A stretch of 61,508 bases of DNA from Kiritimatiellia bacterium (lineage in GTDB: Bacteria > Verrucomicrobiota > Kiritimatiellia > RFP12 > UBA1067). The stretch spans positions 1 to 61,508 of the forward strand of contig JAFXIL010000123.1 in assembly GCA_017563185.1 (NCBI GenBank), in the 5' to 3' direction. The notes under the pieces are model-generated. The model did no database searches and was not told the origin of the DNA. It saw nothing but the letters and a program-made list of their open reading frames with translations. This document shows positions 1-46,795 of this stretch, piece after piece (position 1 is the first letter of the stretch; each line of letters starts with the position of its first letter). The position numbers and the translations under genes were made by a program.

Positions 1-2630
1 CCGAGACGATGGTCGAGACGTCCACCACGTCCTCTCCGGCGTTTGGAACGCGCGTCTCGCGCGGCGTGTGCGGGCTTGTGCTGGAGGAGGAGACGGCGGA
101 CGAGACGATCGCGCACATCTACGATCCGCACGGACGCGAGGAGCGCACCGACAGGCGCGCGCACGGCGAGGCGGACTTCAGGACGGTCGCCGAATTCGTG
201 TACAATGCCATGGGCGACATAGTCGAGCGGCGCACGTACACGAACGCGACGGACTACGTGACGGAGCGCTTCGCGTACGACCACGAGGGCCGCGAGATTG
301 CATCCACCAACGCGCTCGGCAGCGTGGTCACGACGTCATACGATCCGCGCGGCAACGTGACCGCGGTTGACGGCGCCACGTATCCGCTCCGCATGGAGTA
401 CGACCTCAAGGGACGGCGCACGTCCCTCAAGACCACGCGCGACGGCGAAAGCTGGGACGAGACGCGCTGGGCCTTGGACCCCGCCACGGGCCTCTGCCTC
501 TCCAAGACCTACGCCGACGGCTCCACCATCTCCTACACCTACACGCCAGATGGCCTCCCCGCCCGCACCACGTGGCCAGGCGGACGCTGGCAGGAGAACG
601 GATACAACGCGAGGCGGGAGGTCGTCTCGACGGAGCGGTCGGACGGGGAAGAGACGGCGTTTGCATACGACGCGTATTCGTGCGAGATTGTCGTGACAAA
701 CGATTCCGCTTCGATCGAATTCACGCGGGACGACAGGGGCAGGGCGACTAACGTCACGACGACTGTTGCGGGCACGACTCATTCGCTGATGCGGGAGTTT
801 GACAATGCCGGACGCCTTGCAAGAAGCGGTGATTTGTTCTATGAATACGATTCCGAGGGACGGCTTGCGGTGGTCTCCAACTCGATCGCGGCGGTGGAGT
901 ATCAATACGCCGCAGATGGGCTTGACGCGGGATATTCGCTGACGCTTCATAACGGCAGCGTGTTCGCCCGAAGCGTGGCGCGGGATGCCATGCGCCGCTC
1001 TCTGGTGACGGGGATCACCAGTTCAATGAACAACAACCCGGTGGAGAGCATTGCATATTCATACGATGCGCTCGGAAGGCCGACAAACAGAAACAACGAC
1101 GCCTTCGGCTACAACGAGCGCGGCGAGGTGACGTCGGCGTCGATCATGGGATGGTCGCCCTCCCCGTCGACCGCGTCATACGGCTACGACGACATAGGCA
1201 ACCTGCAATTGTCCTCGTTCAACGCCGCGACGAACGCCTACACGGCCAACGGCCTCAACCAGTACACTTCCATTCTCTGTGACTCTGTGACTCTGTGTGA
1301 GCCGACATACGATACAGACGGCAACATGCTTTCCGACGGCGTCCTGTCGTTCACATACGACGCCGCCAGTCGGCTGAAGACGGTTTCGTCGAACGGCGTT
1401 ACGCTCGTCACGAACTTCTACGACGCGAAGTCGCGCCGCGTGAAGAAGGTGACGCCGAATGCCACGACCACGTTCTTCTACGACGACTGGAACCTCGTGG
1501 AGGAGCGAATCGCCTACGCGGACAATACGACATCGACGATCCGCTACTACTGGGGTGATGACCTCTCCGGCACGTTGCAGGGCGCGGGCGGCGTAGGCGG
1601 GCTTCTGTGGCTTACGGTTGACGGCACGATCTACATTCCATGCTACGACAGCAACGGCAACGTCACGCGCTATCTCAGCGTCAACGGTGGTGCCTTGGCA
1701 CGGTACTCATACGATGCCTTCGGCAAGCTCATCGCCAAGTCCGGCAGGCGCGCCAGCTTCTTCCGCCATCGCTTCTCCACCAAGTACTTTGACACCGAGA
1801 CCGGCCTCTACTACTACGGCTACCGCTTCTACCATCCAGGCCTCATGCGCTGGCTCAACAGAGATCCAATGGGGGAGGAAGGGGGGATAAATCTGTATGT
1901 GCCATGTGGAAATGACGTGTTCGGAAAATTTGACTATTTGGGACTCAGTTGGCTTATATTACGTAGTGGAGACACGTTCGCATATGCAGTGCCAACAGCG
2001 CCAGATGATACGTTCAGTGGCCTTGCCGAGGTCGTACAGCTTGATGAATCAGATTGCCAAAAATGGGCTCACACAACGGACGAACTGCCAATCAAATGCA
2101 AGTGGTATTTGATTCCAAACACGAAGGTATATCATAAGGGAGTGCGTCGGTTTTACGAAAATTGGTCTAACAGCGTCATAGGCAATTGGGATCGGCAGAA
2201 TGCGCAGCAAATGTCGCAAGATAAAAATGACGGGTTTAATGTTGTATTGAAGGACAACATCACAGATGTGGACGTTCGGTCAGCATTGGGTGCCGACGGG
2301 CTTTATGAATATGTATTTACAGGGCATGGCTCTGGCGGTGGAGATATTGTAACTGAAGATTTTGATTCTTTTTTTAGCCCATCGCGCATCACTTTATATG
2401 GGATTCACAGACTCACGATGCAGGGATGCGATACGGCAAACGATGTCATAATAAACGGCACTGTCAATCTGGCAGGATGGAGTGCCAATGTTGCAGTCGC
2501 GGGAAGATTTGTTGGTTATCTGGGTGCAGTCAATATATTCTCGGCCTCCGGGAATATGATAATCCGAGCAGGAACTAATTCAGGCGACATCTTAACCACA
2601 AGGAATATGCACGGAGGGAAAGAGAAATGA
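1..2630 (+). CDS. RHS repeat-associated core protein (5' incomplete) with C-terminal toxin domain (LysM-like + caspase-fold protease-like)
   Basis: Many YD repeats; core RFSTKYFDTETGLYYYGYRFY...RWLNRDP..EEGGINLY...DYLGL; GC drops after ~1870; tip has YVFTGHG...LTMQGC. The frame runs to the window edge. Confidence 0.93.
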   Translation, partial: ETMVETSTTSSPAFGTRVSRGVCGLVLEEETADETIAHIYDPHGREERTDRRAHGEADFRTVAEFVYNAMGDIVERRTYTNATDYVTERFAYDHEGREIASTNALGSVVTTSYDPRGNVTAVDGATYPLRMEYDLKGRRTSLKTTRDGESWDETRWALDPATGLCLSKTYADGSTISYTYTPDGLPARTTWPGGRWQENGYNARREVVSTERSDGEETAFAYDAYSCEIVVTNDSASIEFTRDDRGRATNVTTTVAGTTHSLMREFDNAGRLARSGDLFYEYDSEGRLAVVSNSIAAVEYQYAADGLDAGYSLTLHNGSVFARSVARDAMRRSLVTGITSSMNNNPVESIAYSYDALGRPTNRNNDAFGYNERGEVTSASIMGWSPSPSTASYGYDDIGNLQLSSFNAATNAYTANGLNQYTSILCDSVTLCEPTYDTDGNMLSDGVLSFTYDAASRLKTVSSNGVTLVTNFYDAKSRRVKKVTPNATTTFFYDDWNLVEERIAYADNTTSTIRYYWGDDLSGTLQGAGGVGGLLWLTVDGTIYIPCYDSNGNVTRYLSVNGGALARYSYDAFGKLIAKSGRRASFFRHRFSTKYFDTETGLYYYGYRFYHPGLMRWLNRDPMGEEGGINLYVPCGNDVFGKFDYLGLSWLILRSGDTFAYAVPTAPDDTFSGLAEVVQLDESDCQKWAHTTDELPIKCKWYLIPNTKVYHKGVRRFYENWSNSVIGNWDRQNAQQMSQDKNDGFNVVLKDNITDVDVRSALGADGLYEYVFTGHGSGGGDIVTEDFDSFFSPSRITLYGIHRLTMQGCDTANDVIINGTVNLAGWSANVAVAGRFVGYLGAVNIFSASGNMIIRAGTNSGDILTTRNMHGGKEK

Positions 2631-3037
2631 ATCGGGGCACCAAATGTCGTAACTTAGTCGTCAGTACAGTGGCAGCAATTCTATTAGGATATGTTTTCCT
2701 AATGTTTTTTGTTGCATTTAAGAGTCCGTTTACTGTACTTGGCGAACGAGCAAGGCGAGAAAAATGTAGGCGTCTAATGAGGGTGCTACTATCAGCCACA
2801 AATTTGTTTGACACGGTTCAGGAAGCCGCTGATCAGTTTCGGCATTTTGAGGATCCGTGGGGGCATAATTATAATGCCATTGTATCTGATGAGTTTTCCA
2901 ACGTTAGTTTTGGAAATATTTCAGGCTGTTCTATTATAATGTGGTCTTCGGGCCCAAATGGTATCAACGAGAATGGACAGGGGGATGATGTGATGGTTGG
3001 AGATGGGCGAGTCGGGTTCAATAAAGGAAATGATTAA
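2627..3037 (+). CDS. Putative immunity protein 1, membrane-anchored, GspG/pseudopilin C-terminal-like motif
   Basis: ATGA overlap with the toxin stop; low GC; N-terminal TM helix; DPWG..Y...WSSGPNG..E.G.GDD motif. Confidence 0.7.
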   Translation: MNRGTKCRNLVVSTVAAILLGYVFLMFFVAFKSPFTVLGERARREKCRRLMRVLLSATNLFDTVQEAADQFRHFEDPWGHNYNAIVSDEFSNVSFGNISGCSIIMWSSGPNGINENGQGDDVMVGDGRVGFNKGND

Positions 3038-4380
3038 TGATGAAGTACGCGGCCAGTCCAGTAGTGCGCACGGTCGAACACATCTACGACGAGCTGGGAG
3101 AGCGCGTCGGCTCCGTGCAGGACGGAGTGGACTGGATCGAAGAGGAAACTCACTCCTTCGCGTGGGACGGCTGGAACATGGTGCTTGAGAGAATTGACTA
3201 TGCGGACTTTACAACGTCGTCGCGCGTCATAGAATACTATTGGGGTGACGACCTCTCCGGCTCGGAGCAGGGAGCGGGAGGAGTGGGCGGAATTCTCGCG
3301 GTCACGTGCGACGGCAAGTTCTACGTGCCGATCTACGGCGGCAATGGAAACATCATGGGCTATGTCGATGATAGCGGTGCATTCGTTGCAAAGTTCGTGT
3401 ACGATCCGTTTGGAGGTGTTGTGTCCATAGAGGGCGACATCGAGGAACCTCCTCCTCCGATGTCAGGCGAGGAGCCGCCATACGTTGACCGCACTGGCCT
3501 ACACGGAAGCGAATTCTCCTTCGGCTTCTCGACCAAGTACCACGACCGCGAGGTGGGCCTGATCGCCTACCAGCTGCGCAGCTACAGCCCCCGCCTCGGC
3601 CGCTGGCTCAACCGTGATCCGATTGAGGAAGAGGGCGGGGTGAATTTGTATGGGTTTGTAGATAATGAAGTGGTGTACAGAATTGATGCATATGGTTTGT
3701 GGAAGGGCACGAAGGAAAGTTATGGGTTCAAGCGTCGCGTTTACAAGAAATCACGAGACGTGAAATCGTTGAAATCGCTTGCGAATAGGGTGGGTTTGGA
3801 CATTGAATCAATATCTGCATGGGGACGTATAGAGACTTCTCCTGTTGCGTCAGAGACTTCTTCTTCCCCAATTACCCCTACAACGCCATCGTCTAAATAC
3901 TGTTATGTATCAGTGCCAAATATTTGGATAGAAGCAGATCTTTTGCGCGGAGGTAATGTTTACAATCGTGTGATAGTCAACCCTGGTGGCACTATAGGAT
4001 CGTTTTTTGGACAGACCTTAGGGCGTTGGGGATATCACACTGTTAAACCTAAAACGCCAAAAGAGTTGTTCCGAATAGTTGGAGAAAGCGGAAAGAATCT
4101 TTATGGGTTAACAGTTTACGCACATGGTAGTACAAATGGGTATATTGTGTCCTCAGACGAGAGAATGATTCATCAAACGAGATTGACGACATCAATTCGT
4201 AGTAAAGGTTATAGGATTGCCAGAGCAAATATGATGCAATGTTATAGTGCGATTCCTTTTGGATCTATACCAGTTGAACAATATAAAGAGATGCCGTTTG
4301 ACTATACTGCCGAGTGGACGAAAACCGCTGTAAAATTTTTTGGTTATGAAGGGATGAATATCATTGGTATAGATTTCTAA
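3037..4380 (+). CDS. Orphan RHS core + C-terminal toxin 2 (LysM-like + caspase-fold protease-like)
   Basis: YYWGDDLSG..QGAGGVGG, FSTKY, RWLNRDPIEEEGGVNLY, DAYGL; tip has LTVYAHG...ANMMQC; lacks the long N-terminal YD shell. Confidence 0.88.
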   Translation: MMKYAASPVVRTVEHIYDELGERVGSVQDGVDWIEEETHSFAWDGWNMVLERIDYADFTTSSRVIEYYWGDDLSGSEQGAGGVGGILAVTCDGKFYVPIYGGNGNIMGYVDDSGAFVAKFVYDPFGGVVSIEGDIEEPPPPMSGEEPPYVDRTGLHGSEFSFGFSTKYHDREVGLIAYQLRSYSPRLGRWLNRDPIEEEGGVNLYGFVDNEVVYRIDAYGLWKGTKESYGFKRRVYKKSRDVKSLKSLANRVGLDIESISAWGRIETSPVASETSSSPITPTTPSSKYCYVSVPNIWIEADLLRGGNVYNRVIVNPGGTIGSFFGQTLGRWGYHTVKPKTPKELFRIVGESGKNLYGLTVYAHGSTNGYIVSSDERMIHQTRLTTSIRSKGYRIARANMMQCYSAIPFGSIPVEQYKEMPFDYTAEWTKTAVKFFGYEGMNIIGIDF

Positions 4381-4390
4381 AGGAGTTATT

Positions 4391-4840
4391 ATGAATAATC
4401 GGAAGTTCTTCTCCCTAGTCACATTTCTGCTGATATTTACATCAGGGTGTGTAATACCTATTCCACATAAAAGAGTGTCGCGTGTGGGATGTGAAGGAGT
4501 AGTCCTTGATGCTAGAACTGGTAACCCAATTAGGGAGGCTACAGTTTGTGTCATGTATGGGGGCGCGACAAATATTGAGGCGCGAACAGATGCCAAGGGC
4601 CATTATAGAATCTGTGACGAGACAACTTGGCATGGGGCCTATTTTATTGGTGTCCCTGTAAGTTTCTCGTTATTTCCAACGCTTGACGCACCTCTGTATC
4701 CGCTCGCAATATCCGTGAGTGCGGAAGGGTATGACCGCTGGAAGTGGCAAGCTTGGATTGATATTGATTCCAACAGTGCATTTTCCGATGAATCAGCAGA
4801 AATTTTTCCTTCAACCATGCGGTTGAATTCAATTGAATGA
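4391..4840 (+). CDS. Putative immunity lipoprotein 2 (carboxypeptidase-regulatory-like beta-sandwich)
   Basis: RBS AAGGAG; lipobox TSGC; GVVLDARTGNPI..A.V...TDAKGHY motif; directly follows toxin 2. Confidence 0.72.
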   Translation: MNNRKFFSLVTFLLIFTSGCVIPIPHKRVSRVGCEGVVLDARTGNPIREATVCVMYGGATNIEARTDAKGHYRICDETTWHGAYFIGVPVSFSLFPTLDAPLYPLAISVSAEGYDRWKWQAWIDIDSNSAFSDESAEIFPSTMRLNSIE

Positions 4841-5889
4841 GAGTGTACCTAGAACGTATGAGTAGTAGATGTGCCATAGAAAAAAGAGCCGCTGACTTAA
4901 GACGAGGATCGGGCGGGCGCTGCATGCGGCGACCGCGTGGGTGGCGTGTCGCTCGAAGTCTGAAGTCCGAAGTCGGAAGTCGTGAAAACGCGCGGGTACT
5001 GTCCCCGAGGAGGCTGTTTTTAACGCAGAGCCGCAGAGGCGCGGAGGATGCGGAGGTATGTTTGAAGAAGCGCACGGGGAAAGTCCCTGCTGGGTTAATT
5101 TCCATCGAGAACGTCCTGTCTGCGCCTATGCCGTCGCTGGACGGCTCGCCGGTCCCGATTCCGGTAGGCCTTCACGGAAGAGAGTTCTCCTTCGGCTTCT
5201 CGACGAAGTACCACGACCGCGAGGTGGGCTTGATCGCCTACCAGCTGCGCAGCTACAGCCCCCGCCTCGGCCGCTGGCTCAACCGGGATCCGATTGAGGA
5301 AAAGGGAGGGGTGAATCTGTATGGGTTTGTAGATAATATGCCATCTGGCCTTTTTGATTTATCCGGAATGCATTCATTTAAATTTGTTGACCTTGGGTGG
5401 AGCTACGCCAATATTTTATCTGGTAACATAGTGGATATGTTAGGTACACCGATTACCGATCACATCGGAGTTACGCCATATTTTTTGATAGCAGAATCTA
5501 GATGTCTTTGTGAATCAGGTAAATACGTTCCAGACTATACTTTTAAGTTATTGGTTTATAGTTTGATTCAGGATTCAAATGATCCAGTCTGGACTAACAA
5601 TGCGTATGGCACAAAAATCGACGATCCTCGGGTTAAGAACAAGTGGAACTCATTTTGGTTTTTCACGGTAAGAAGGCGTATCAATCTTGTTTTGGAGCAT
5701 GAGGAACGGCATAGAAAACATGCTCGTGAGAGTTACGATGACATAATCGCTGCGTTAAAAGTGAAAGAAGAATTCCTCATGAGAGAAGAGTGCGAAAAGT
5801 GGGCTAAGGAAAAAATTAAATCTGCAAAATGGCTTTACGAAATGATCGAGAAAGAAAAAGCAGCGAATGTCGAGAAAGGTAGGAGGTAG
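4837..5889 (+). CDS. Orphan RHS core fragment (RHS homology from ~5100) + HExxH zincin-like toxin 3; N-terminal ~87 codons derive from the intergenic junction region
   Basis: FSFGFSTKYHDREVGL...RWLNRDP...DLSGM, then LEHEERHRKH. Confidence 0.8.
   Translation: MRVYLERMSSRCAIEKRAADLRRGSGGRCMRRPRGWRVARSLKSEVGSRENARVLSPRRLFLTQSRRGAEDAEVCLKKRTGKVPAGLISIENVLSAPMPSLDGSPVPIPVGLHGREFSFGFSTKYHDREVGLIAYQLRSYSPRLGRWLNRDPIEEKGGVNLYGFVDNMPSGLFDLSGMHSFKFVDLGWSYANILSGNIVDMLGTPITDHIGVTPYFLIAESRCLCESGKYVPDYTFKLLVYSLIQDSNDPVWTNNAYGTKIDDPRVKNKWNSFWFFTVRRRINLVLEHEERHRKHARESYDDIIAALKVKEEFLMREECEKWAKEKIKSAKWLYEMIEKEKAANVEKGRR
4905..5012 (+). repeat. Inter-cassette junction repeat, copy 1 (no REP doublet)
   Basis: AGGATCGGGCGGGCGCTGCATGCGGCG...(GAAGTCN)n...AAACGCGCGGGTACTGTCCCCGAGGAG. 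Confidence 0.85.
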
Positions 5890-5892
5890 GCT

Positions 5893-6768
5893 ATGAAAAA
5901 ATTGGTGTCGTATGTTTTCTTGTGGACGGCAGTGGTGACTATCACGTCGGGCGGATGTCAGAGCATGACAGACGAGGCGCCAACGTCCTCTTTGCGAGAG
6001 CACTATTACTTTGTAAAAAAAATCGAACACAGGGCTTTGTCCATGGGGAGCGTTGCGACTAATGAGGTTCCAGATGTATGGCAAGGAAAAATATCGGACT
6101 ACTTTGGCATTCAGGATGCACTTGAGGCCTATAATATAGGCAGAACCATAACCCGTGAAGCCGCTTTCAGTCGGTCTGTTGCTTCATTGCCAGCATATAG
6201 CGAAACGAATATTGTCCAGCAGGCGTTCAAGGACGGAATCGACGATGGCACCGTAAATGACGTGAATGTCTTAAGACGCAGAGATCAAAGCCGAAGGCGG
6301 CTCCAGGAGAAGTTCTGGGGATGTGGAGTTGCCTCAGAGGAGGATGATCCTGAGGCTTGCGCTACTACGGATGGTGGTGTGGCAACTAATTATTATTCTG
6401 AATTGGCAGCTTCATATACATCTGGATATAAAAATGGGTGGCGTGTGGTCAATAGACTTAAGAAGTCGCCGATTTCCACGGTGGTTGGTTGTGGTGGGCC
6501 ATATCTTGGTCCGGATGCTATGAGGCGTGCGTATGTTTACGGGTGGTATTCGGCTTGTCATGATTATTTCGTCTTGCATGGTGATGAAGTACATTATGTC
6601 GATCAGACTGGTTGTATTCTTCAGGTAGGTCTTGATCCTTTTGATTATTACAGGATGAAGGTCGACCGTTTTAAAGAAAGGGAATTTGAGTTTCTACTTT
6701 TCTGTGCAAGGCAACGGCAAGGATTTTATAGTCAATTGTGGCAGTTGCTGTTCGTTTGCAGAAAATGA
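5893..6768 (+). CDS. Putative immunity lipoprotein 3
   Basis: RBS AGGAGG; signal peptide with SGGC lipobox-like end; low GC; follows toxin 3. Confidence 0.65.
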   Translation: MKKLVSYVFLWTAVVTITSGGCQSMTDEAPTSSLREHYYFVKKIEHRALSMGSVATNEVPDVWQGKISDYFGIQDALEAYNIGRTITREAAFSRSVASLPAYSETNIVQQAFKDGIDDGTVNDVNVLRRRDQSRRRLQEKFWGCGVASEEDDPEACATTDGGVATNYYSELAASYTSGYKNGWRVVNRLKKSPISTVVGCGGPYLGPDAMRRAYVYGWYSACHDYFVLHGDEVHYVDQTGCILQVGLDPFDYYRMKVDRFKEREFEFLLFCARQRQGFYSQLWQLLFVCRK

Positions 6769-6856
6769 ACACGAACCACGTGTGGCGAAGGAAAAGAGAT
6801 TTGAGTAGAAAAGTAACAGAAGAGAGGAATTCCGACTTCAGACGTCGGACGTGGGC

Positions 6857-7002
6857 AGGATCGGGCGGGCGCTGCATGCGGCGGTCGCGCGGCGCGCGCG
6901 TTGTCGCCTCGCGAGGCCAGGAGTTGGAAGTCACGAATCGGGGAAGCGGCACTCTTGCCGCTTATGCATTGGCGCGTCATTGTGAAGCGACAAGAGTGTC
7001 GC
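6857..7002 (+). repeat. Inter-cassette junction repeat, copy 2 (REP doublet, truncated in its right arm)
   Basis: AGGATCGGGCGGGCGCTGCATGCGGCG is identical to copy 1; 6934-7002 is near-identical to 7225-7293. Confidence 0.85.
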
Positions 7003-7154
7003 ATGACGCGCTTGGACGGCCTGTCTCCACGGCTGATTCGGAGTCCGTCGCGCGTATCTGGACGTACAACGAACGCTCCGAGATGACGGGATGCACTTCG
7101 AACGACGGCAGCTACTCGTACTTCTACGATTCGATCGGCAACCGCACGTCGGCT
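7002..7154 (+). pseudogene. Short RHS YD-repeat fragment
   Basis: Translates HDALGRPVS...WTYNERSEMTG...YSYFYDSIGNRTSAG, between two junction repeats. Confidence 0.8.
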
Positions 7155-7327
7155 GGACTGGGCGTGCGCTGCATACGGCTACCACGCGGTGGGCATGTCG
7201 TTGGAAGTCGGAAGTCGGATGTCCCGAATCGGGGAAGCGGCACTCTTGCCGCTTCTGCATTGGCGCGTCATTGTGAAGCGACAGGAGTGTCGCTTCCCCG
7301 AAACGCGTGGGAACTGTCCCTGAGGAG
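7155..7327 (+). repeat. Inter-cassette junction repeat, copy 3, with complete 73-bp REP-like doublet (7229-7301)
   Basis: TCGGGGAAGCGGCA-CTCT-TGCCGCTTC...GAAGCGACA-GGAG-TGTCGCTTCCCCGA: two 9-bp-stem hairpins in inverted orientation. Confidence 0.88.
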
Positions 7328-7334
7328 TTCGGTC

Positions 7335-7787
7335 ATAAGAAGATTCTTATTGAACGGCTTAAGTTGTATCCTGTTGTCTGTAGCGTTAGGATGTAGACCG
7401 CAGGAAAGAGTTGAGTTGGATCATGCGCACGGCTGTGATCTGCTCGTCGAAACGAGTTCCAGTCCGCTTCAATATCGCGACATCCGCTATGTTGCCAAGG
7501 GAACGGAGAACCTGTGCAAATTGGTTGAACATTCCGTTACGAATTTTAAACAGAAGCGATTTGCATATGTGATGTGTCCATACTATCTTAAATATCGCAA
7601 TAGGATGATTGGTGTGACAGGGGATGGTGAGCTTGATGTCTCTCCTACGGATCCTTCAAAGCTACATGTTCGGGCAGATCATGTTCTAGTTATTCCGGAT
7701 TCTGTTACTTGTACACAAATAGTTACAGAAATTAGAGGAATTCTAAAAGAAGGGCAATATCCTTTCTTGCCTAGGAGTAAGCCATGA
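7335..7787 (+). CDS. Orphan immunity-like lipoprotein (start uncertain: ATA 7335 or TTG 7350)
   Basis: RRFLLNGLSCILLSVALG-C lipoprotein signal; GAGGAG at 7322-7327; low GC. Confidence 0.55.
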   Translation: MRRFLLNGLSCILLSVALGCRPQERVELDHAHGCDLLVETSSSPLQYRDIRYVAKGTENLCKLVEHSVTNFKQKRFAYVMCPYYLKYRNRMIGVTGDGELDVSPTDPSKLHVRADHVLVIPDSVTCTQIVTEIRGILKEGQYPFLPRSKP

Positions 7788-8138
7788 AGCGAACGCAGAA
7801 TACGACTATCAACCGCTTGAAGACCAACGCGCGTGGACTGTTCCCGGCGAGTTTCGCTCTTCACTCCCTTTAGGACACACGACGACGAGATGCATTCGCT
7901 CGATCCATGCGACAGCTCCAACGAGAACGGCGCAGACGAGAACGAACCGGTGGAGCATGTTGCCGCAGACCGCGAAGCGCGCAGCGCGTTCTTCTTCTGA
8001 AGGCGGTCCGGCGAAATATATGTGACGCGATCGTCCCATGCCTCGGCGTCCATATATTTGTGGCAACTGCAAGATTTCAACATTAAAGTCACCGCAGAAT
8101 ACTAGCCACGAACCACGGCCCACTGGCTGCAGACCACG

Positions 8139-8816
8139 CTACCACTTCACGGGCGAGATGCCGTGGGCTACGAGATATTCATTGGCCATGCGAAAGTGGT
8201 TGCATCCGAAGAAGCCGCGCGCCGCCGAAAGCGGCGATGGGTGCGGCGACTCGAGAACGCAATGGCGCGTACGGTCGATCACGGCGCCCTTCTGCTGCGC
8301 GTAGGAGCCCCAGAGAAGGAACACTAGATTCGAGCGCCTGGCGGCAAGTGCCGCCACCGCCGCGTCGGTGAACCTCTCCCACCCGCGCCGCTGATGGCTT
8401 CCGGCGCGTCCCGCCTCGACGGTGAGAGTGGCGTTCAGCAGCAGCACGCCCTGGTCGGCCCAGGAAAGAAGATCGGGAATGCGAAGCGGCGCACCAAGCG
8501 CAGCCTCCTCTGGATACTCCGCGGCGAGCTCCTTCGCGATGTTGTAGAGCGAAGGAGGCGTGCGCACGCCCGGCGGCACGTAGAAGGCGAGCCCCTGCGC
8601 CTGGCCGGGCTCGTGATACGGATCCTGGCCAAGCACCACCACGCGCACCTTGTCGATCGGCGTGCGGTTGAACGCCTCGAAGATGAGGCGGCCGGGCGGA
8701 TAGACAGTTCCGCGCGCATACGCCGCGCGCACGAAGCGCACGAGCTCGGCGAAGTAAGGGCTGTCGAACTCGCCCTGCAGCGCCTCGCGCCACGAAGGCT
8801 CTATCTTCACTTCCAT
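8139..8816 (-). CDS. ung: Uracil-DNA glycosylase (family 1)
   Basis: GQDPYH, LLLNATLTV, HPSPLSA motifs. Confidence 0.97.
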   Translation of the reverse strand: MEVKIEPSWREALQGEFDSPYFAELVRFVRAAYARGTVYPPGRLIFEAFNRTPIDKVRVVVLGQDPYHEPGQAQGLAFYVPPGVRTPPSLYNIAKELAAEYPEEAALGAPLRIPDLLSWADQGVLLLNATLTVEAGRAGSHQRRGWERFTDAAVAALAARRSNLVFLLWGSYAQQKGAVIDRTRHCVLESPHPSPLSAARGFFGCNHFRMANEYLVAHGISPVKW

Positions 8817-8824
8817 GACTGCCC

Positions 8825-9979
8825 TCACAGACGAGTCCACACGCCGCCCGCCTTGGACGAGGCGACCACCGCGTCTATGAACCTTAGCCCGCGCACGCCG
8901 TCGCGCGCGTTCGGGAAGTCGAGCATCGATGGGGTGGGACGCTTACCTGCGTCCACCGCGCGTATCGCGTCGCAGAAGTTGAGGTAGTGGTTGGCGAAGC
9001 CCTCGATGTAGCCTTCGGGATGGCCGGCCGGCGGACGCGATGCGCGCATCGACGCCTCGCTCACCTCCGCCACGTACGGATTCGCCCGCTTCCACGTCTG
9101 CTCCGGCTCGCGCTGCGCCCGCAGTCGCAGCACATTGGGATCCTCCTGCATCCACACGAGCCCCTTCTTGTCGCCATACACCCTAAGCCGCAGGCCGTTC
9201 TCCTCGCCCGTCGCGATCTTCGACGCCGTCAATACGCCCTTCGCGCCGCCGGAGAGGCGCAGCAGCACGTTGCCGTCGTCGTCCAGACCCTTCGGCGCTA
9301 CGAAGGACGACAGGTCGGCCAGCACCTGCCTTATCTCAAGCCCCGTCACGAACTCCACGAGATTCGCGGCATGTATTCCGATGTCGCCCATGCAGCAGCT
9401 CTTGCCGGAGCACTTCGGATCCATCTTCCACTTGTTGCGCTTGTCGAGCGGCACCGAGAAGTCCATCTTGCGGAACGACCCCTGACAGTACTCGACAGTC
9501 ACCTTGCAGATCTTTCCAAGGTCCCCTCTCTTCACCAGGTCGCGCGCAAGCTTCACCATCGGATATCCGGTGTATGTGTGCATCAGTCCGAACACGCGCT
9601 TTGTGCGCTTCACGAGATCGGCTATCTCGTTCGCCTCCTCAACAGTCAGCGTCATGGGCTTCTCGCACATCACGTGGAACCCGGCCTCAAGAGATGCCTT
9701 GGCGATGGGGTAGTGGAGGTGATTGGGAGTGCAGACGGCGATGAAGTCGGCACGGTCGGCGAGCGCCGCCTCGCCCGCCACGAGAGCCTGCCATGTGGGG
9801 TAGGTGCGGTCTGGCGTGACGCCAATGCGCTCGGCGATCTCGGCGTTCTGCGAAGGGTCGCGGTTGAACATTCCCGCCACCACCTCAACGCCGCCGTCCA
9901 TTCTCACGGCCTCGCGGTGAATCTTGCCGATGAAGGCACCAACGCCACCACCGATCATTGCCATCTTTAACTTTTTCAT
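8825..9979 (-). CDS. Gfo/Idh/MocA family oxidoreductase
   Basis: MIGGG..AFIG.IH, TPNHLH, CEKP, DIGIHA, GHPEGY motifs. Confidence 0.92.
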   Translation of the reverse strand: MKKLKMAMIGGGVGAFIGKIHREAVRMDGGVEVVAGMFNRDPSQNAEIAERIGVTPDRTYPTWQALVAGEAALADRADFIAVCTPNHLHYPIAKASLEAGFHVMCEKPMTLTVEEANEIADLVKRTKRVFGLMHTYTGYPMVKLARDLVKRGDLGKICKVTVEYCQGSFRKMDFSVPLDKRNKWKMDPKCSGKSCCMGDIGIHAANLVEFVTGLEIRQVLADLSSFVAPKGLDDDGNVLLRLSGGAKGVLTASKIATGEENGLRLRVYGDKKGLVWMQEDPNVLRLRAQREPEQTWKRANPYVAEVSEASMRASRPPAGHPEGYIEGFANHYLNFCDAIRAVDAGKRPTPSMLDFPNARDGVRGLRFIDAVVASSKAGGVWTRL

Positions 9980-12707: not shown

Positions 12708-14291
12708 CTACTTTGCGTACTCCACGCACCTCAGCTCGCGCACAACCGTCACACGGATCATGCCGGGGAACTTCAGCTGCGCGGAGATGTCGCGGCATAT
12801 CTCGCCGGCGAGCTCCGCGGCGGCCTTGTCGCCAACCGCGTCGGGATCCACCATCACCCGCAGATCGCGTCCGGCCTGGACGGCGAATGCGTTGGCCACG
12901 CCAGGATGCGACTTCGCGATCTTCTCGAGATTCTCTAGGCGCTGGATGTAGTCGGCGGCCTTTTCCTGGCGTGCGCCAGGCCGCGCGCTCGAAATCGCAT
13001 CCGCCGCCGCGCAGATCACGCCGTACACTCCGCCGTCCACGCCCGCTTCGGAATGGTGCGCCGCCACGGCCGCGCAGACTCGTGCGTCTTCGCCGTGCGC
13101 CGCGAGGAACTCTGCGCCAAGAGCGGCGTGTGCGCCCTTCTTCTCCGCGGTGATGGCCTTGCCGATGTCGTGCAGGAACCCAACGCGCCGCGCAAGCGAG
13201 CCATCGAGCTTCATCTCCGCCGCGATGGTGCCAGAGAGAATCGCCACCTCCACCGAATGGCGCAGCACGTTCTGCGAGAACGACGTGCGGAAGCGCAGTT
13301 CGCCCATGAGGCGCAGCACCTCCGCAGGAAGGCCCGACACGCCCGCCTCCGCCGCGGCCTCCGCGCCGCATTCCTCGTTTTCCTTCTCCACGTTCTCACG
13401 TGCGGTCTCAACTGCGTGCTCGATGGAGGCGGGATGTATGCGCCCGTCGGCCACGAGCGCCTCGAGCGCGCGGCGCGCCACTTCGCGCCTGTGGGGGTCG
13501 AACGCGGAAAGCACCACCGCGTCGGGCGCGTCGTCCAGAAGCAGCGTCACGCCCGTCGCCGATTCGAACGCACGCACGTTGCGCCCGTCCCTGCCCACGA
13601 TGCGCCCCTTCATCTCGGCGCTCGGCATCAGCACCGCGGTTGTCGAAAGCTCGTTCACGTGGGCCACCGCGCAGCGCTGCACCGCCTCCGCCACGATCTT
13701 CGCGGCTATCGCCTCGCCCTGCTCGCGCGCGGCCTCCTGGATGCGGCGGCTGAGAATCGCCGCGTCGGCGCGCAGCTCCGCATTGGCGCGTGAGAGAATC
13801 TCGCGCCTCGCCTCGGCGTGCGTCATGCGCGAGAGCTCCTGCAGGCGGCGATCCGCGGCGATGTTCTTCTCCTCCGCCTCGCGGAGGCCCTTCGCGGCCT
13901 CGGCGCTCTTTGCGGCGGCCGCGGTCTCGCGCTCGTCGAGCGTAGCGGCCTTGCGGTCGAGATTCGCCTCGCGCTGCGTCTGGCGGTCTTCGATCGCCTG
14001 CAGCTCGGCGCGGCGCTTCTTTGTGGAGGCCTCGAACTCCTCGCGCACCTTCACCACCGTCGCGCGCGCCGCGATGTCGGCCTCCTTCAGGCGGGCCTTG
14101 ATCTCGGCCTCGGCCTCTTCGTCGCGAAGGCGCATCTTCTTCTCTATCGACTCCGCCTGCCAGCGGCCCACGAGACCGCGCAGAGCGTAGCCCAGCAGCA
14201 GGCCAAGGAGCAGCAGCACCGCGATGATGAGAATCGCGACGCCGTCAGAAAGGCCGTCCCACGTACTGCTGGATAGAGCGAAGAAGAGCAT
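12708..14291 (-). CDS. rny: Ribonuclease Y
   Basis: N-terminal TM, coiled coil, KH (KGRIVGRDGRN), HD domain (HSVEVA...LHDIGK), ADAISSARPGAR. Confidence 0.96.
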   Translation of the reverse strand: MLFFALSSSTWDGLSDGVAILIIAVLLLLGLLLGYALRGLVGRWQAESIEKKMRLRDEEAEAEIKARLKEADIAARATVVKVREEFEASTKKRRAELQAIEDRQTQREANLDRKAATLDERETAAAAKSAEAAKGLREAEEKNIAADRRLQELSRMTHAEARREILSRANAELRADAAILSRRIQEAAREQGEAIAAKIVAEAVQRCAVAHVNELSTTAVLMPSAEMKGRIVGRDGRNVRAFESATGVTLLLDDAPDAVVLSAFDPHRREVARRALEALVADGRIHPASIEHAVETARENVEKENEECGAEAAAEAGVSGLPAEVLRLMGELRFRTSFSQNVLRHSVEVAILSGTIAAEMKLDGSLARRVGFLHDIGKAITAEKKGAHAALGAEFLAAHGEDARVCAAVAAHHSEAGVDGGVYGVICAAADAISSARPGARQEKAADYIQRLENLEKIAKSHPGVANAFAVQAGRDLRVMVDPDAVGDKAAAELAGEICRDISAQLKFPGMIRVTVVRELRCVEYAK

Positions 14292-15887: not shown

Positions 15888-16029
15888 GGCATTTACCTTT
15901 CCCTAGCTGTCAATTTAGAGTTCAGAGTTCAGAGTTTAAAGTTTAATGACAAAGGATGGTGGATGTTGAACGCAAAGCGCCTTCCAGACCAGCCCTCTGT
16001 CTCTTGTCTTCTGCCCCCGAAACTCCCCC

Positions 16030-16136
16030 ACCTTCACACCTTCAAACCCTCAAACCTTCAAACCCTCACACCTTCAAACCCTCACACCTTCAAACTTTCA
16101 AACTTTCAAACCTTCGAACCTTCGAACCTTCAACCA
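16030..16136. repeat. Degenerate tandem octamer array (CCTTCAAA-like, about 13 units)
   Basis: ccttcaca/ccttcaaa/ccctcaaa/ctttcaaa/ccttcgaa units directly visible. Confidence 0.9.

Positions 16137-44134: not shown

Positions 44135-46795
<2,661 letters not shown>

Follow-up and report, generated by a model that had tools for sequence, protein, structure and literature searches.

A mosaic of small repeats at the cassette borders of an RHS toxin-immunity array in a Kiritimatiellia bacterium

The RHS locus analyzed here lies at the start of a 61,508-nt stretch of DNA from a Kiritimatiellia bacterium (the window), which is contig C75 of a 3.2 Mb genome assembly of 206 contigs and 62.8% G+C (G000). 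The sequencing runs that contain the locus are animal-gut metagenomes. The locus is a classical RHS array, in which a main RHS gene is followed by orphan toxin-immunity cassettes, and three copies of a non-RHS spacer lie at the borders of these cassettes. A first-pass annotation had described the spacer as one dedicated element, possibly a recombination or capture site that also supplies a ribosome-binding site (RBS). Our results show that the three copies are a mosaic of modules, here called H, R and T, rather than a single unit, and that H is the part linked to RHS.

The genes and modules of the array are listed in Table 1. Positions 3040-4251 of orphan 2 match residues 458-812 of the main RHS protein (tblastn), and a 171-nt core repeat (family D1) is shared between 3496-3666 and 5167-5337 with 95% identity. 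The open frame that begins at the immunity-2 stop continues after H and T into an RHS core tail (about 5100-5337) and then into toxin 3 (about 5338-5889), which contains an HExxH motif. The last frame of the array, 6765-7787, traverses spacer copy 2, an RHS fragment and spacer copy 3 before it ends in a lipoprotein-like open reading frame (ORF) at 7335-7787, for which no Pfam family was found.

Table 1. Genes and repeat modules of the RHS array, in order along the window.
Feature	Position	Strand	Evidence
Main RHS gene, 5' end beyond contig	3..2630	+	875-aa ORF, 5' open; Pfam RHS_repeat E 6.7e-23
136-aa ORF, immunity position, start overlaps RHS stop	2627..3037	+	ORF list; no Pfam family
Orphan 2 (RHS fragment + toxin C-terminus), no H/T/R upstream	3037..4380	+	ORF list, tblastn
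149-aa ORF, immunity position (immunity 2)	4391..4840	+	ORF list; CarboxypepD_reg match weak, below cut-off
Open frame, ATG overlapping immunity-2 stop (ATGA)	4837..5889	+	ORF list; traverses H, T
H copy 1, left heptamer arm 12 nt shorter	4888..4981	+	nhmmer E 2.1e-19; alignment
T module: two GGGGACNGTCCCC-type hairpins around TTTTTAACGCAGAG... spacer	4983..5091	+	nhmmer E 1.6e-31
291-aa lipoprotein-like ORF, immunity position (immunity 3)	5893..6768	+	ORF list; no significant Pfam family
Open frame, ATG overlapping immunity-3 stop (ATGA)	6765..7787 (ORF list also 6738 start)	+	
H copy 2, complete, both inverted heptamer arms	6825..6939	+	nhmmer E 2.6e-28
R', REP doublet cut at model position 70/78	6936..7002	+	nhmmer E 1.1e-20, model positions 2-70
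153-nt RHS fragment between copies 2 and 3	6999..7151	+	Pfam RHS_repeat E 7.9e-5
H copy 3, RHS sequence in place of left arm	7152..7230	+	nhmmer 7130-7230, E 1.1e-19
R, full REP doublet	7227..7303	+	nhmmer E 2.3e-26
First T hairpin unit, GAGGAG at end	7304..7327	+	Sequence

Repeat families D2, D4 and D5 connect the three spacer copies, which align with one another. The first-pass annotation had placed the copies close to where an nhmmer profile of H, built on 8 seed copies, finds them (E 1e-19 to 1e-28), but their limits had to be redrawn, as copy 1 reaches about 80 nt past 5012 to take in T, and the left arm of GACTTCN heptamers in copy 2 had been overlooked. H is a 115-nt piece bounded by inverted GACTTCN/GAAGTCN heptamer runs, which serve as terminal inverted repeats in complete copies. 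No consistent target-site duplication of the miniature inverted-repeat transposable element type was found at H copies. The match of H copy 3 spans model positions 7-115, in agreement with the alignment. T at 4983-5091 is 92% identical to C169:23705-23809 and has a fold z of -0.28. R is an inverted doublet of 22-27-nt palindromes of the repetitive extragenic palindromic (REP) kind, and its shortened form R' ends inside the 3' arm of the second hairpin, directly against the RHS fragment, just as the annotation had it. This fragment is 94% identical to C169:23106-23259, and loose contig ends from run X17 give 6998 and 7151 as its homology limits. The junction of R with a T hairpin at 7303/7304 recurs on C142 between two convergent genes. 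Microhomology of 4-7 nt is present at the junctions (TCGC at 6999-7002, ACGTCGG near 7147, and GCTG at 4891 and 5013).

Sequence similarity among the H copies is 72-94%. The idea that H forms a significant hairpin in the window was rejected, as its fold there is no better than that of shuffles (z -0.26 for copy 1 and -0.08 for copy 2). A complete copy on C121 folds well (z -4.12), and in the H consensus 3 of 32 predicted pairs show a compensatory change, with a covariation term of -1.08 kcal/mol. The inter-contig repeats are not RNA genes, because the Rfam search gave no RNA family in window 4000-9000 or in six related loci, and no tRNA there.

Other small repeats were observed in and around RHS loci. 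One is K, a further heptamer-armed foldback in which GACAGAG/CTCTGTC-type arms enclose a GGCTGCATG... core; it is found at L153 (a metagenome contig; L-numbers denote loci; reverse strand 1690-1790), at L021 and at C169:23860-23935, often between an immunity gene and H. The heptamers that form the arms of H and K also occur as an in-frame run of about three at one fixed site in RHS coding sequence (after ...LNQY), located at window 1260-1290, C17:27525-27550, C181:5690-5720 (minus strand) and C154:9405-9432; they are of CTCTGTG type in the main RHS gene, C17 and C161 and of GACTTCN type in C181 and C154. An 8-nt tandem repeat (CTTCAAAC-type) lies at window 16019-16136, on more than 20 other contigs, and also just 5' of a leader on C36 that is described below.

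R and T are widespread outside the RHS array. R at 7226-7304 has a folding energy of -28.6 kcal/mol (z -7.91), a value equalled by none of 200 shuffles. Full R doublets are present on C168, C142, C14, C139 and C6 in addition to the two in the window, hairpin arrays are present on C164, C107 and C46, and the neighbours of the doublets are unrelated housekeeping genes (among them an ABC transporter, convergent MutL and rhamnosidase genes, NrdD/NrdG). R occurs alone on C142, C14, C6 and C182, T does so on C125 and C169, and the right half of H is joined to R on C139 and C168. The T hairpin GGGGACNGTCCCC gives 150 motif matches over both strands, corresponding to about 75 sites genome-wide. Two or three single R-family hairpins were also seen at window 45579-45642, far from the RHS array (93-96% to one doublet arm).

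The annotation had proposed a search for a REP-associated tyrosine transposase (RAYT) or Y1 gene flanked by these hairpins, and a RAYT-like gene flanked by R hairpins was indeed found on C164, where R-family doublets at 13154-13352 and 14065-14262 enclose a Y1_Tnp ORF (13452-13688, 38.5 bits). GGGGACNGTCCCC hairpins at C29 8128-8182 and 9892-9967 flank a second Y1_Tnp ORF. A third, on C146 (locus L166, 730-2554), is flanked by its own REP family, an array of at least 8 units with a 60-nt period. For all three ORFs the best NCBIfam model is REP-associated tyrosine transposase (NF047646), with scores of 59.5 (C164), 71.2 (C29) and 41.6 bits (C146), all under the equivalog cut-off of 80. H flanks a RAYT-like gene at 0 of the 3 Y1_Tnp loci and has only 8 copies in the genome. 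The account of REPs in PMC3733652 describes a conserved GTAG or CGTC tag at one end; read by eye, with no systematic check, the GTAG tag is absent from the ends of R and CGTC is present only in the linker. Collectively, R is a genuine REP doublet of a REP/RAYT system, and the T hairpins are the REPs of a second such system. The description of the spacer as one dedicated element therefore has to be abandoned, since R and T hairpins are genome-wide REPs in ordinary intergenic DNA.

H behaves as an RHS-linked part, which in this lineage lies mostly at RHS cassette borders. The profile detects 8 copies in G000 (three in the window and one each on C36, C177, C121, C139 and C168), and an RHS fragment adjoins H in 5 of the 8 (window, C36 and C177), i.e., at 3 of 6 loci; against chance this gives a binomial probability of about 3e-5, which is partly post hoc. 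On C36 a leader-H-T block leads directly into a YD-repeat stretch at the contig end, and on C177 the H block is followed by a 145-aa ORF and then by a 136-aa ORF with an RHS_repeat match (E 2.8e-7). Among the same-genus relatives, long matches are limited to G024 and G021, and in the remaining ones the match is limited to a 28-nt GGGGAC hairpin. Seven of the nine H matches in G024 lie on four contigs that also bear RHS.

A degenerate 23-nt pattern of the H core proved too G+C-rich to be specific and gave 118 chance matches in unrelated high-GC genomes. A pattern scan of metagenomes returned 18 loci; the profile confirmed H in 7 of these, on 5 contigs, and found no H in the other 11 (L147-149, L152 and L158-164; 65-67% GC), which were rejected as chance matches. 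RHS lies at most 2 kb from H on 4 of the 5 confirmed contigs, and the fifth is an H-T block at a contig end, pointing outward. H-T stands directly 5' of RHS tail fragments, and H-R stands 3' of immunity genes, as seen in the window, L021, L022 and L026. In all copies that share a locus with RHS, H has the same orientation as the RHS gene (20/20), which would not be expected from random insertion of a palindromic element.

The cassettes between the spacers are variable. Only RHS core, H, T and R in the window are homologous to the other arrays compared, and no match to its toxin and immunity sequences was found in those arrays. Homology ends with the RHS core, at 5292-5312, and restarts at 6786, 18 nt past the immunity-3 stop. 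In a collection of 5.8 billion proteins, 16 clusters (193-484 aa) begin with the H-T peptide, of which 15 run on into an RHS tail or a longer RHS fragment and one into a non-RHS domain. Fourteen of the 15 then enter at least 10 unlike toxin C-termini (judged by eye), while P0014 is without the end of the RHS core. The H-T peptide was not found in proteins of 614-2000 aa, which is weak evidence. Several toxin C-termini behind an H-T-RHS tail carry an HExxH motif (HEERH, HEEKH or HEGKH; window 5690-5720, L021 and L157). No Pfam family matches these C-termini, which may form an undescribed zincin-like toxin group.

The array at L153 is homologous to the window and has the same H-T-tail junction as copy 1, behind another upstream gene and ahead of another toxin. 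Its H-R' is cut within 1 nt of the cut at window 7002, and the RHS position to which it is fused differs between the two (residue 534 in L153, about residue 353 in the window). On the coding strand of G024:C489 the order is a gene, H-R, a T-type hairpin, another heptamer-armed foldback and GAAAC-type repeats, followed by a 330-nt A+T-rich leader, H-T, RHS from about residue 392, and a toxin. The leader contains a promoter-like site, TTGTCT-17-TAAAAT with TG before the -10 hexamer, of which 0.2 would be expected; conservation of the site extends to C36, C177 and C121 and, in the form TACAAT, to G024:C489. The copies in the window lack the leader and, on the plus strand, any promoter-like site of their own. 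RHS segments starting at ...EYAYQYDDIGNR (about residue 392 of the main RHS) also recur behind a different 5' block, at C17:27300-27440, C181:5850-5960 (minus strand), C154:9230-9300 and C169:18080-18250. This block has a TGnTACAAT-type -10 and two G+C hairpins, and the differing blocks suggest several alternative 5' modules for truncated RHS genes.

Strain variants were sought in assembled contigs, not raw reads, of four runs (including X15, X17, X18 and X19). A DNA-run contig of X15, anchored in immunity 2, joins 4890 to 5013, so that 4891-5012 is absent and GCTG is found at both edges. The skipped sequence is H plus the first T hairpin, a unit without inverted ends. An RNA-library contig of X18 joins 5205 back to 3535, which places the T-core block (5014-5205) ahead of toxin 2 (3535-3841); this junction is a crossover in the core repeat. 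Loose contig ends at 5012 and 5046 suggest further alleles. In the RNA-library runs X18 and X19 the segment 5360-6830 is not covered by contigs, a gap that should not be read as silence. For the proposal that strain breakpoints would map inside the spacer, the results are mixed, since the X15 variant breaks at module edges, and the break of the X18 variant lies in the core repeat, where the classical model would put it. The broader proposal of a recombination or capture site gains from the X15 allele, which lacks exactly 4891-5012, and from the inter-array homology that begins and ends at the edges of the element.

The suggested role of the spacer as an RBS supplier is not borne out in general. 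GAGGAG at 7322-7327 does lie at RBS distance, 7 nt before codon 7335, which opens the lipoprotein-like signal sequence. This codon is ATA, a non-standard start, and the first in-frame ATG, GTG or TTG is TTG 7350. The arrangement is limited to copy 3, and GAGGAG is intrinsic to the T hairpin unit wherever the unit occurs, including between the convergent genes on C142.

With moderate confidence, we favour the reading that the spacer is a lineage-specific and conserved inter-cassette spacer, built of independent small repeats, which provides homology for ordinary recombination. Direct observations are the anatomy of the spacer, the two strain variants, the limits of homology between arrays, the occurrence of R and T throughout the genome and the association of H with RHS. 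From these we infer that recombination does use H; the 115-base piece probably aids cassette swapping. Each cassette would be bracketed by an RHS core tail at its left and by the next H block at its right, and both brackets could act as homology arms for RecA-type exchange, duplication and loss of cassettes. Hairpins and heptamers would contribute slippage and microhomology breakpoints. The action of the spacer is most likely a passive one, in that it provides homology and fragile hairpins at the borders of cassettes, and a dedicated recombinase would have no part in the scheme.

Several points weigh against this reading. The blind RHS zones of G000 (tblastn E<1e-3, +-2 kb, 1.16% of the genome) contain only the three H copies of the window, and C36 and C177 were added via a 31-aa YD stretch and a Pfam match, which makes the count of 5 of 8 partly post hoc. 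The H copies on C121, C139 and C168 are at loci without detectable RHS: that on C121 precedes the gene of a LamG-domain protein, and C139 and C168 have a half-H with R among unrelated genes. None of the three modules occurs in the largest other RHS array (C161, five fragments) or upstream of orphan 2 in the window. The enrichment at RHS borders that the first-pass annotation expected holds through H, with the three H loci without RHS and the C161 array as exceptions. The H copies on Ga0310695_10065395 (loci L155-L157) are identical to those of G024:C489; with copies that share descent in this way, the counts overstate independence. No recombinant between two H copies (deletion, circle or duplication joint) was found in the assembled contigs of the four runs. 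Lastly, the homology-spacer reading leaves in-frame junctions and the tiling of ORFs, both described below, unexplained. As a separate observation, a 178-aa ORF at C139:49410-49681 is followed by an H-R-hairpin insert, past which about 25 nt from the ORF's 3' end appear a second time, right at the contig end; a displaced gene end, a long duplication of the target and an artefact of assembly are all conceivable explanations.

An alternative is that H, T and R are selfish or neutral passengers, copied along with RHS duplications and accumulating in the dispensable orphan region, where they would play no part in turnover, all of which would take place in the core. The status of R and T hairpins as ordinary REPs with RAYT-like genes of their own in housekeeping intergenic regions fits such passengers, as do the GAAGTCN heptamer runs, which form 18 clusters genome-wide, many of them far from RHS. 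The shuffle-like fold of H in the window, its weak covariation, the core-repeat breakpoint of X18 and a C161 array that works without the modules point the same way. Passengers would not be expected to show inter-array homology blocks that end exactly at H edges, an immunity-2-anchored X15 allele that lacks exactly H and the first T hairpin, or co-orientation with RHS in every shared locus, and we consider this alternative unlikely. Very improbable, in our view, is a dedicated site-specific system, in which cassettes would be captured or excised by a specific enzyme, either a RAYT with R as its substrate or an attC-type recombinase with H as its substrate. Such a system could account for the cut of R, which agrees to within 1 nt between two arrays although the adjoining RHS positions differ, and for boundaries that recur right after GAGGAG (5012 in the X15 and X18 alleles, 7327 in copy 3), and a cognate RAYT-like gene exists. 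However, both R' junctions belong to a single H-R subtype and may go back to a common event, and illegitimate recombination fits the junctions because of their 4-7 nt microhomology. The search for a tyrosine recombinase that the annotation had called for gave 6 matches (PF00589) in the assembly, which is fragmented into 206 contigs, none of them on a contig with H or RHS, and the best integron integrase match (TIGR02249) scored 71 bits against a cut-off of 265. Together with the lack of a significant H hairpin in the window, this speaks against the comparison of the spacer to a dedicated attC-like site.

A third alternative, which ranks in probability between the two above, addresses the in-frame organization of the spacers. 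Here the spacer would be an expression module, transcribed and translated as a frame-preserving linker or leader that starts from the promoter-bearing 330-nt leader in some copies and from an ATG overlapping the immunity stop in others. Ribosomes would then pass through the whole array, polarity would be avoided and orphan pairs could be expressed without the main RHS gene. Same-strand ORFs do tile the window array from 3-2630 to 6765-7787 with gaps of at most 10 nt, and the H frame, which reads ...GRCMRR..., is free of stops in all 17 unique copies, with three indels of 3, 6 and 12 nt. All seven distinct element-RHS junctions are in the H frame (7/7), for which chance is about (1/3)^7 if they are independent. 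Of 17 distinct H copies that have an ORF upstream, 3 have an H-frame ORF that begins with an ATGA start overlapping the upstream stop, and in 5 the frame is already open where the upstream ORF ends. The conserved leader site on C121, C177 and G024:C489 and an RNA-library contig that covers 4666-5106 would also agree with expression, although RNA-library contigs are no proof of transcription. Against a translated function, the variable columns of H are spread evenly over codon positions (21/21/21; minimum changes 26/32/27), and H as a protein-coding gene was rejected for this missing codon-position bias. Stop-creating substitutions number 2 against 4.5 expected, a depletion that is not significant; for these reasons the translated linker is kept as a rival and not as a finding. 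Furthermore, the ATGA start is missing in 14 of 17 copies, the ORFs of C121, C177 and L153 copy 2 end unfused, the window copies lack a plus-strand promoter-like site of their own, and the H-T protein search is biased because only in-frame fusions can be found by it. A related and doubtful possibility is that the H-T/H-R spacer is a functional cassette adaptor, frame-preserving and co-oriented, with or without a promoter, which would combine unbroken translation with a second homology arm. If so, orphan toxin-immunity pairs would be expressed without the RHS shell as exchangeable units, in an integron-like cassette economy without an integrase, where RAYT-targeted REP hairpins would seed breaks.

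The array combines known kinds of elements, namely REP-type mosaics and RHS orphan arrays. REP, bacterial interspersed mosaic element and REPIN sequences with their RAYT (TnpA-REP) genes are described for E. coli and Pseudomonas fluorescens (PMC3116915, PMC3337134, PMC3479197). R resembles these as a multi-copy, intergenic, inverted palindrome doublet with hairpin arrays around a single RAYT-like gene, and the T hairpins resemble them in surrounding a second RAYT-like gene. The difference is that the REPs here are nested with the non-REP H in a recurring, oriented composite tied to RHS cassettes, that H has no cognate transposase, and that the RAYT-like genes score under the NCBIfam equivalog cut-off. 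For orphan rhs-CT/rhsI and cdiA-CT/cdiI modules, the cited accounts describe C-terminal displacement and reuse by core recombination (PMC3967940, PMC3150448, PMC5361080). The window agrees with these in its core-bearing toxin-immunity pairs behind a main RHS gene, in the 95% identical 171-nt repeat, and in the X18 variant that crosses over in this repeat. In contrast to them, the core pieces here are preceded by a conserved non-RHS H-T block, sometimes with a promoter-bearing leader, and a conserved repeat forms the right-hand edge of the cassette as well. Full-text literature searches gave no paper that ties REP/RAYT or any fixed spacer to Rhs orphan arrays.

Other systems are less close. The spacer is similar to integron attC in that an imperfect-palindrome repeat lies at cassette borders and always points the same way as the cassettes. 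In attC sites, which are imperfect palindromes with extrahelical bases, it is mainly the structure that is conserved, whereas H is conserved in sequence and its fold in the window is not significant; no linked integrase, attI or Pc was found. H-rpt in the Rhs elements of E. coli is likewise a non-RHS repeat historically found inside Rhs elements, but it is a 1.3-kb ISAs1-type insertion sequence encoding a transposase, while the element here is 100-200 nt and encodes none. In Neisseria, Correia repeat-enclosed elements (CREEs) and REP clusters are found around type VI secretion system and surface-antigen loci (PMC10210955), and the same paper cites a porA deletion through recombination between REP clusters. 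CREEs are also small inverted-repeat elements that flank toxin loci, may carry promoters, interrupt genes and mediate recombinational deletions; they differ in being dispersed and transposon-like, not cassette-oriented, and in forming no fixed 5' block of toxin modules.

The usual account of orphan toxin arrays relies on core recombination only, whereas here a second conserved and oriented block is found at the other cassette edge, where it stands before at least 10 types of toxin in this uncultured lineage from the gut. The block can be used as a marker of RHS cassette borders in fragmented metagenome assemblies of this lineage. If it acts as a homology arm or as a translated linker, toxin-immunity pairs would be modular without a dedicated recombinase, and REP-type repeats would gain a concrete role in the evolution of weapon loci.

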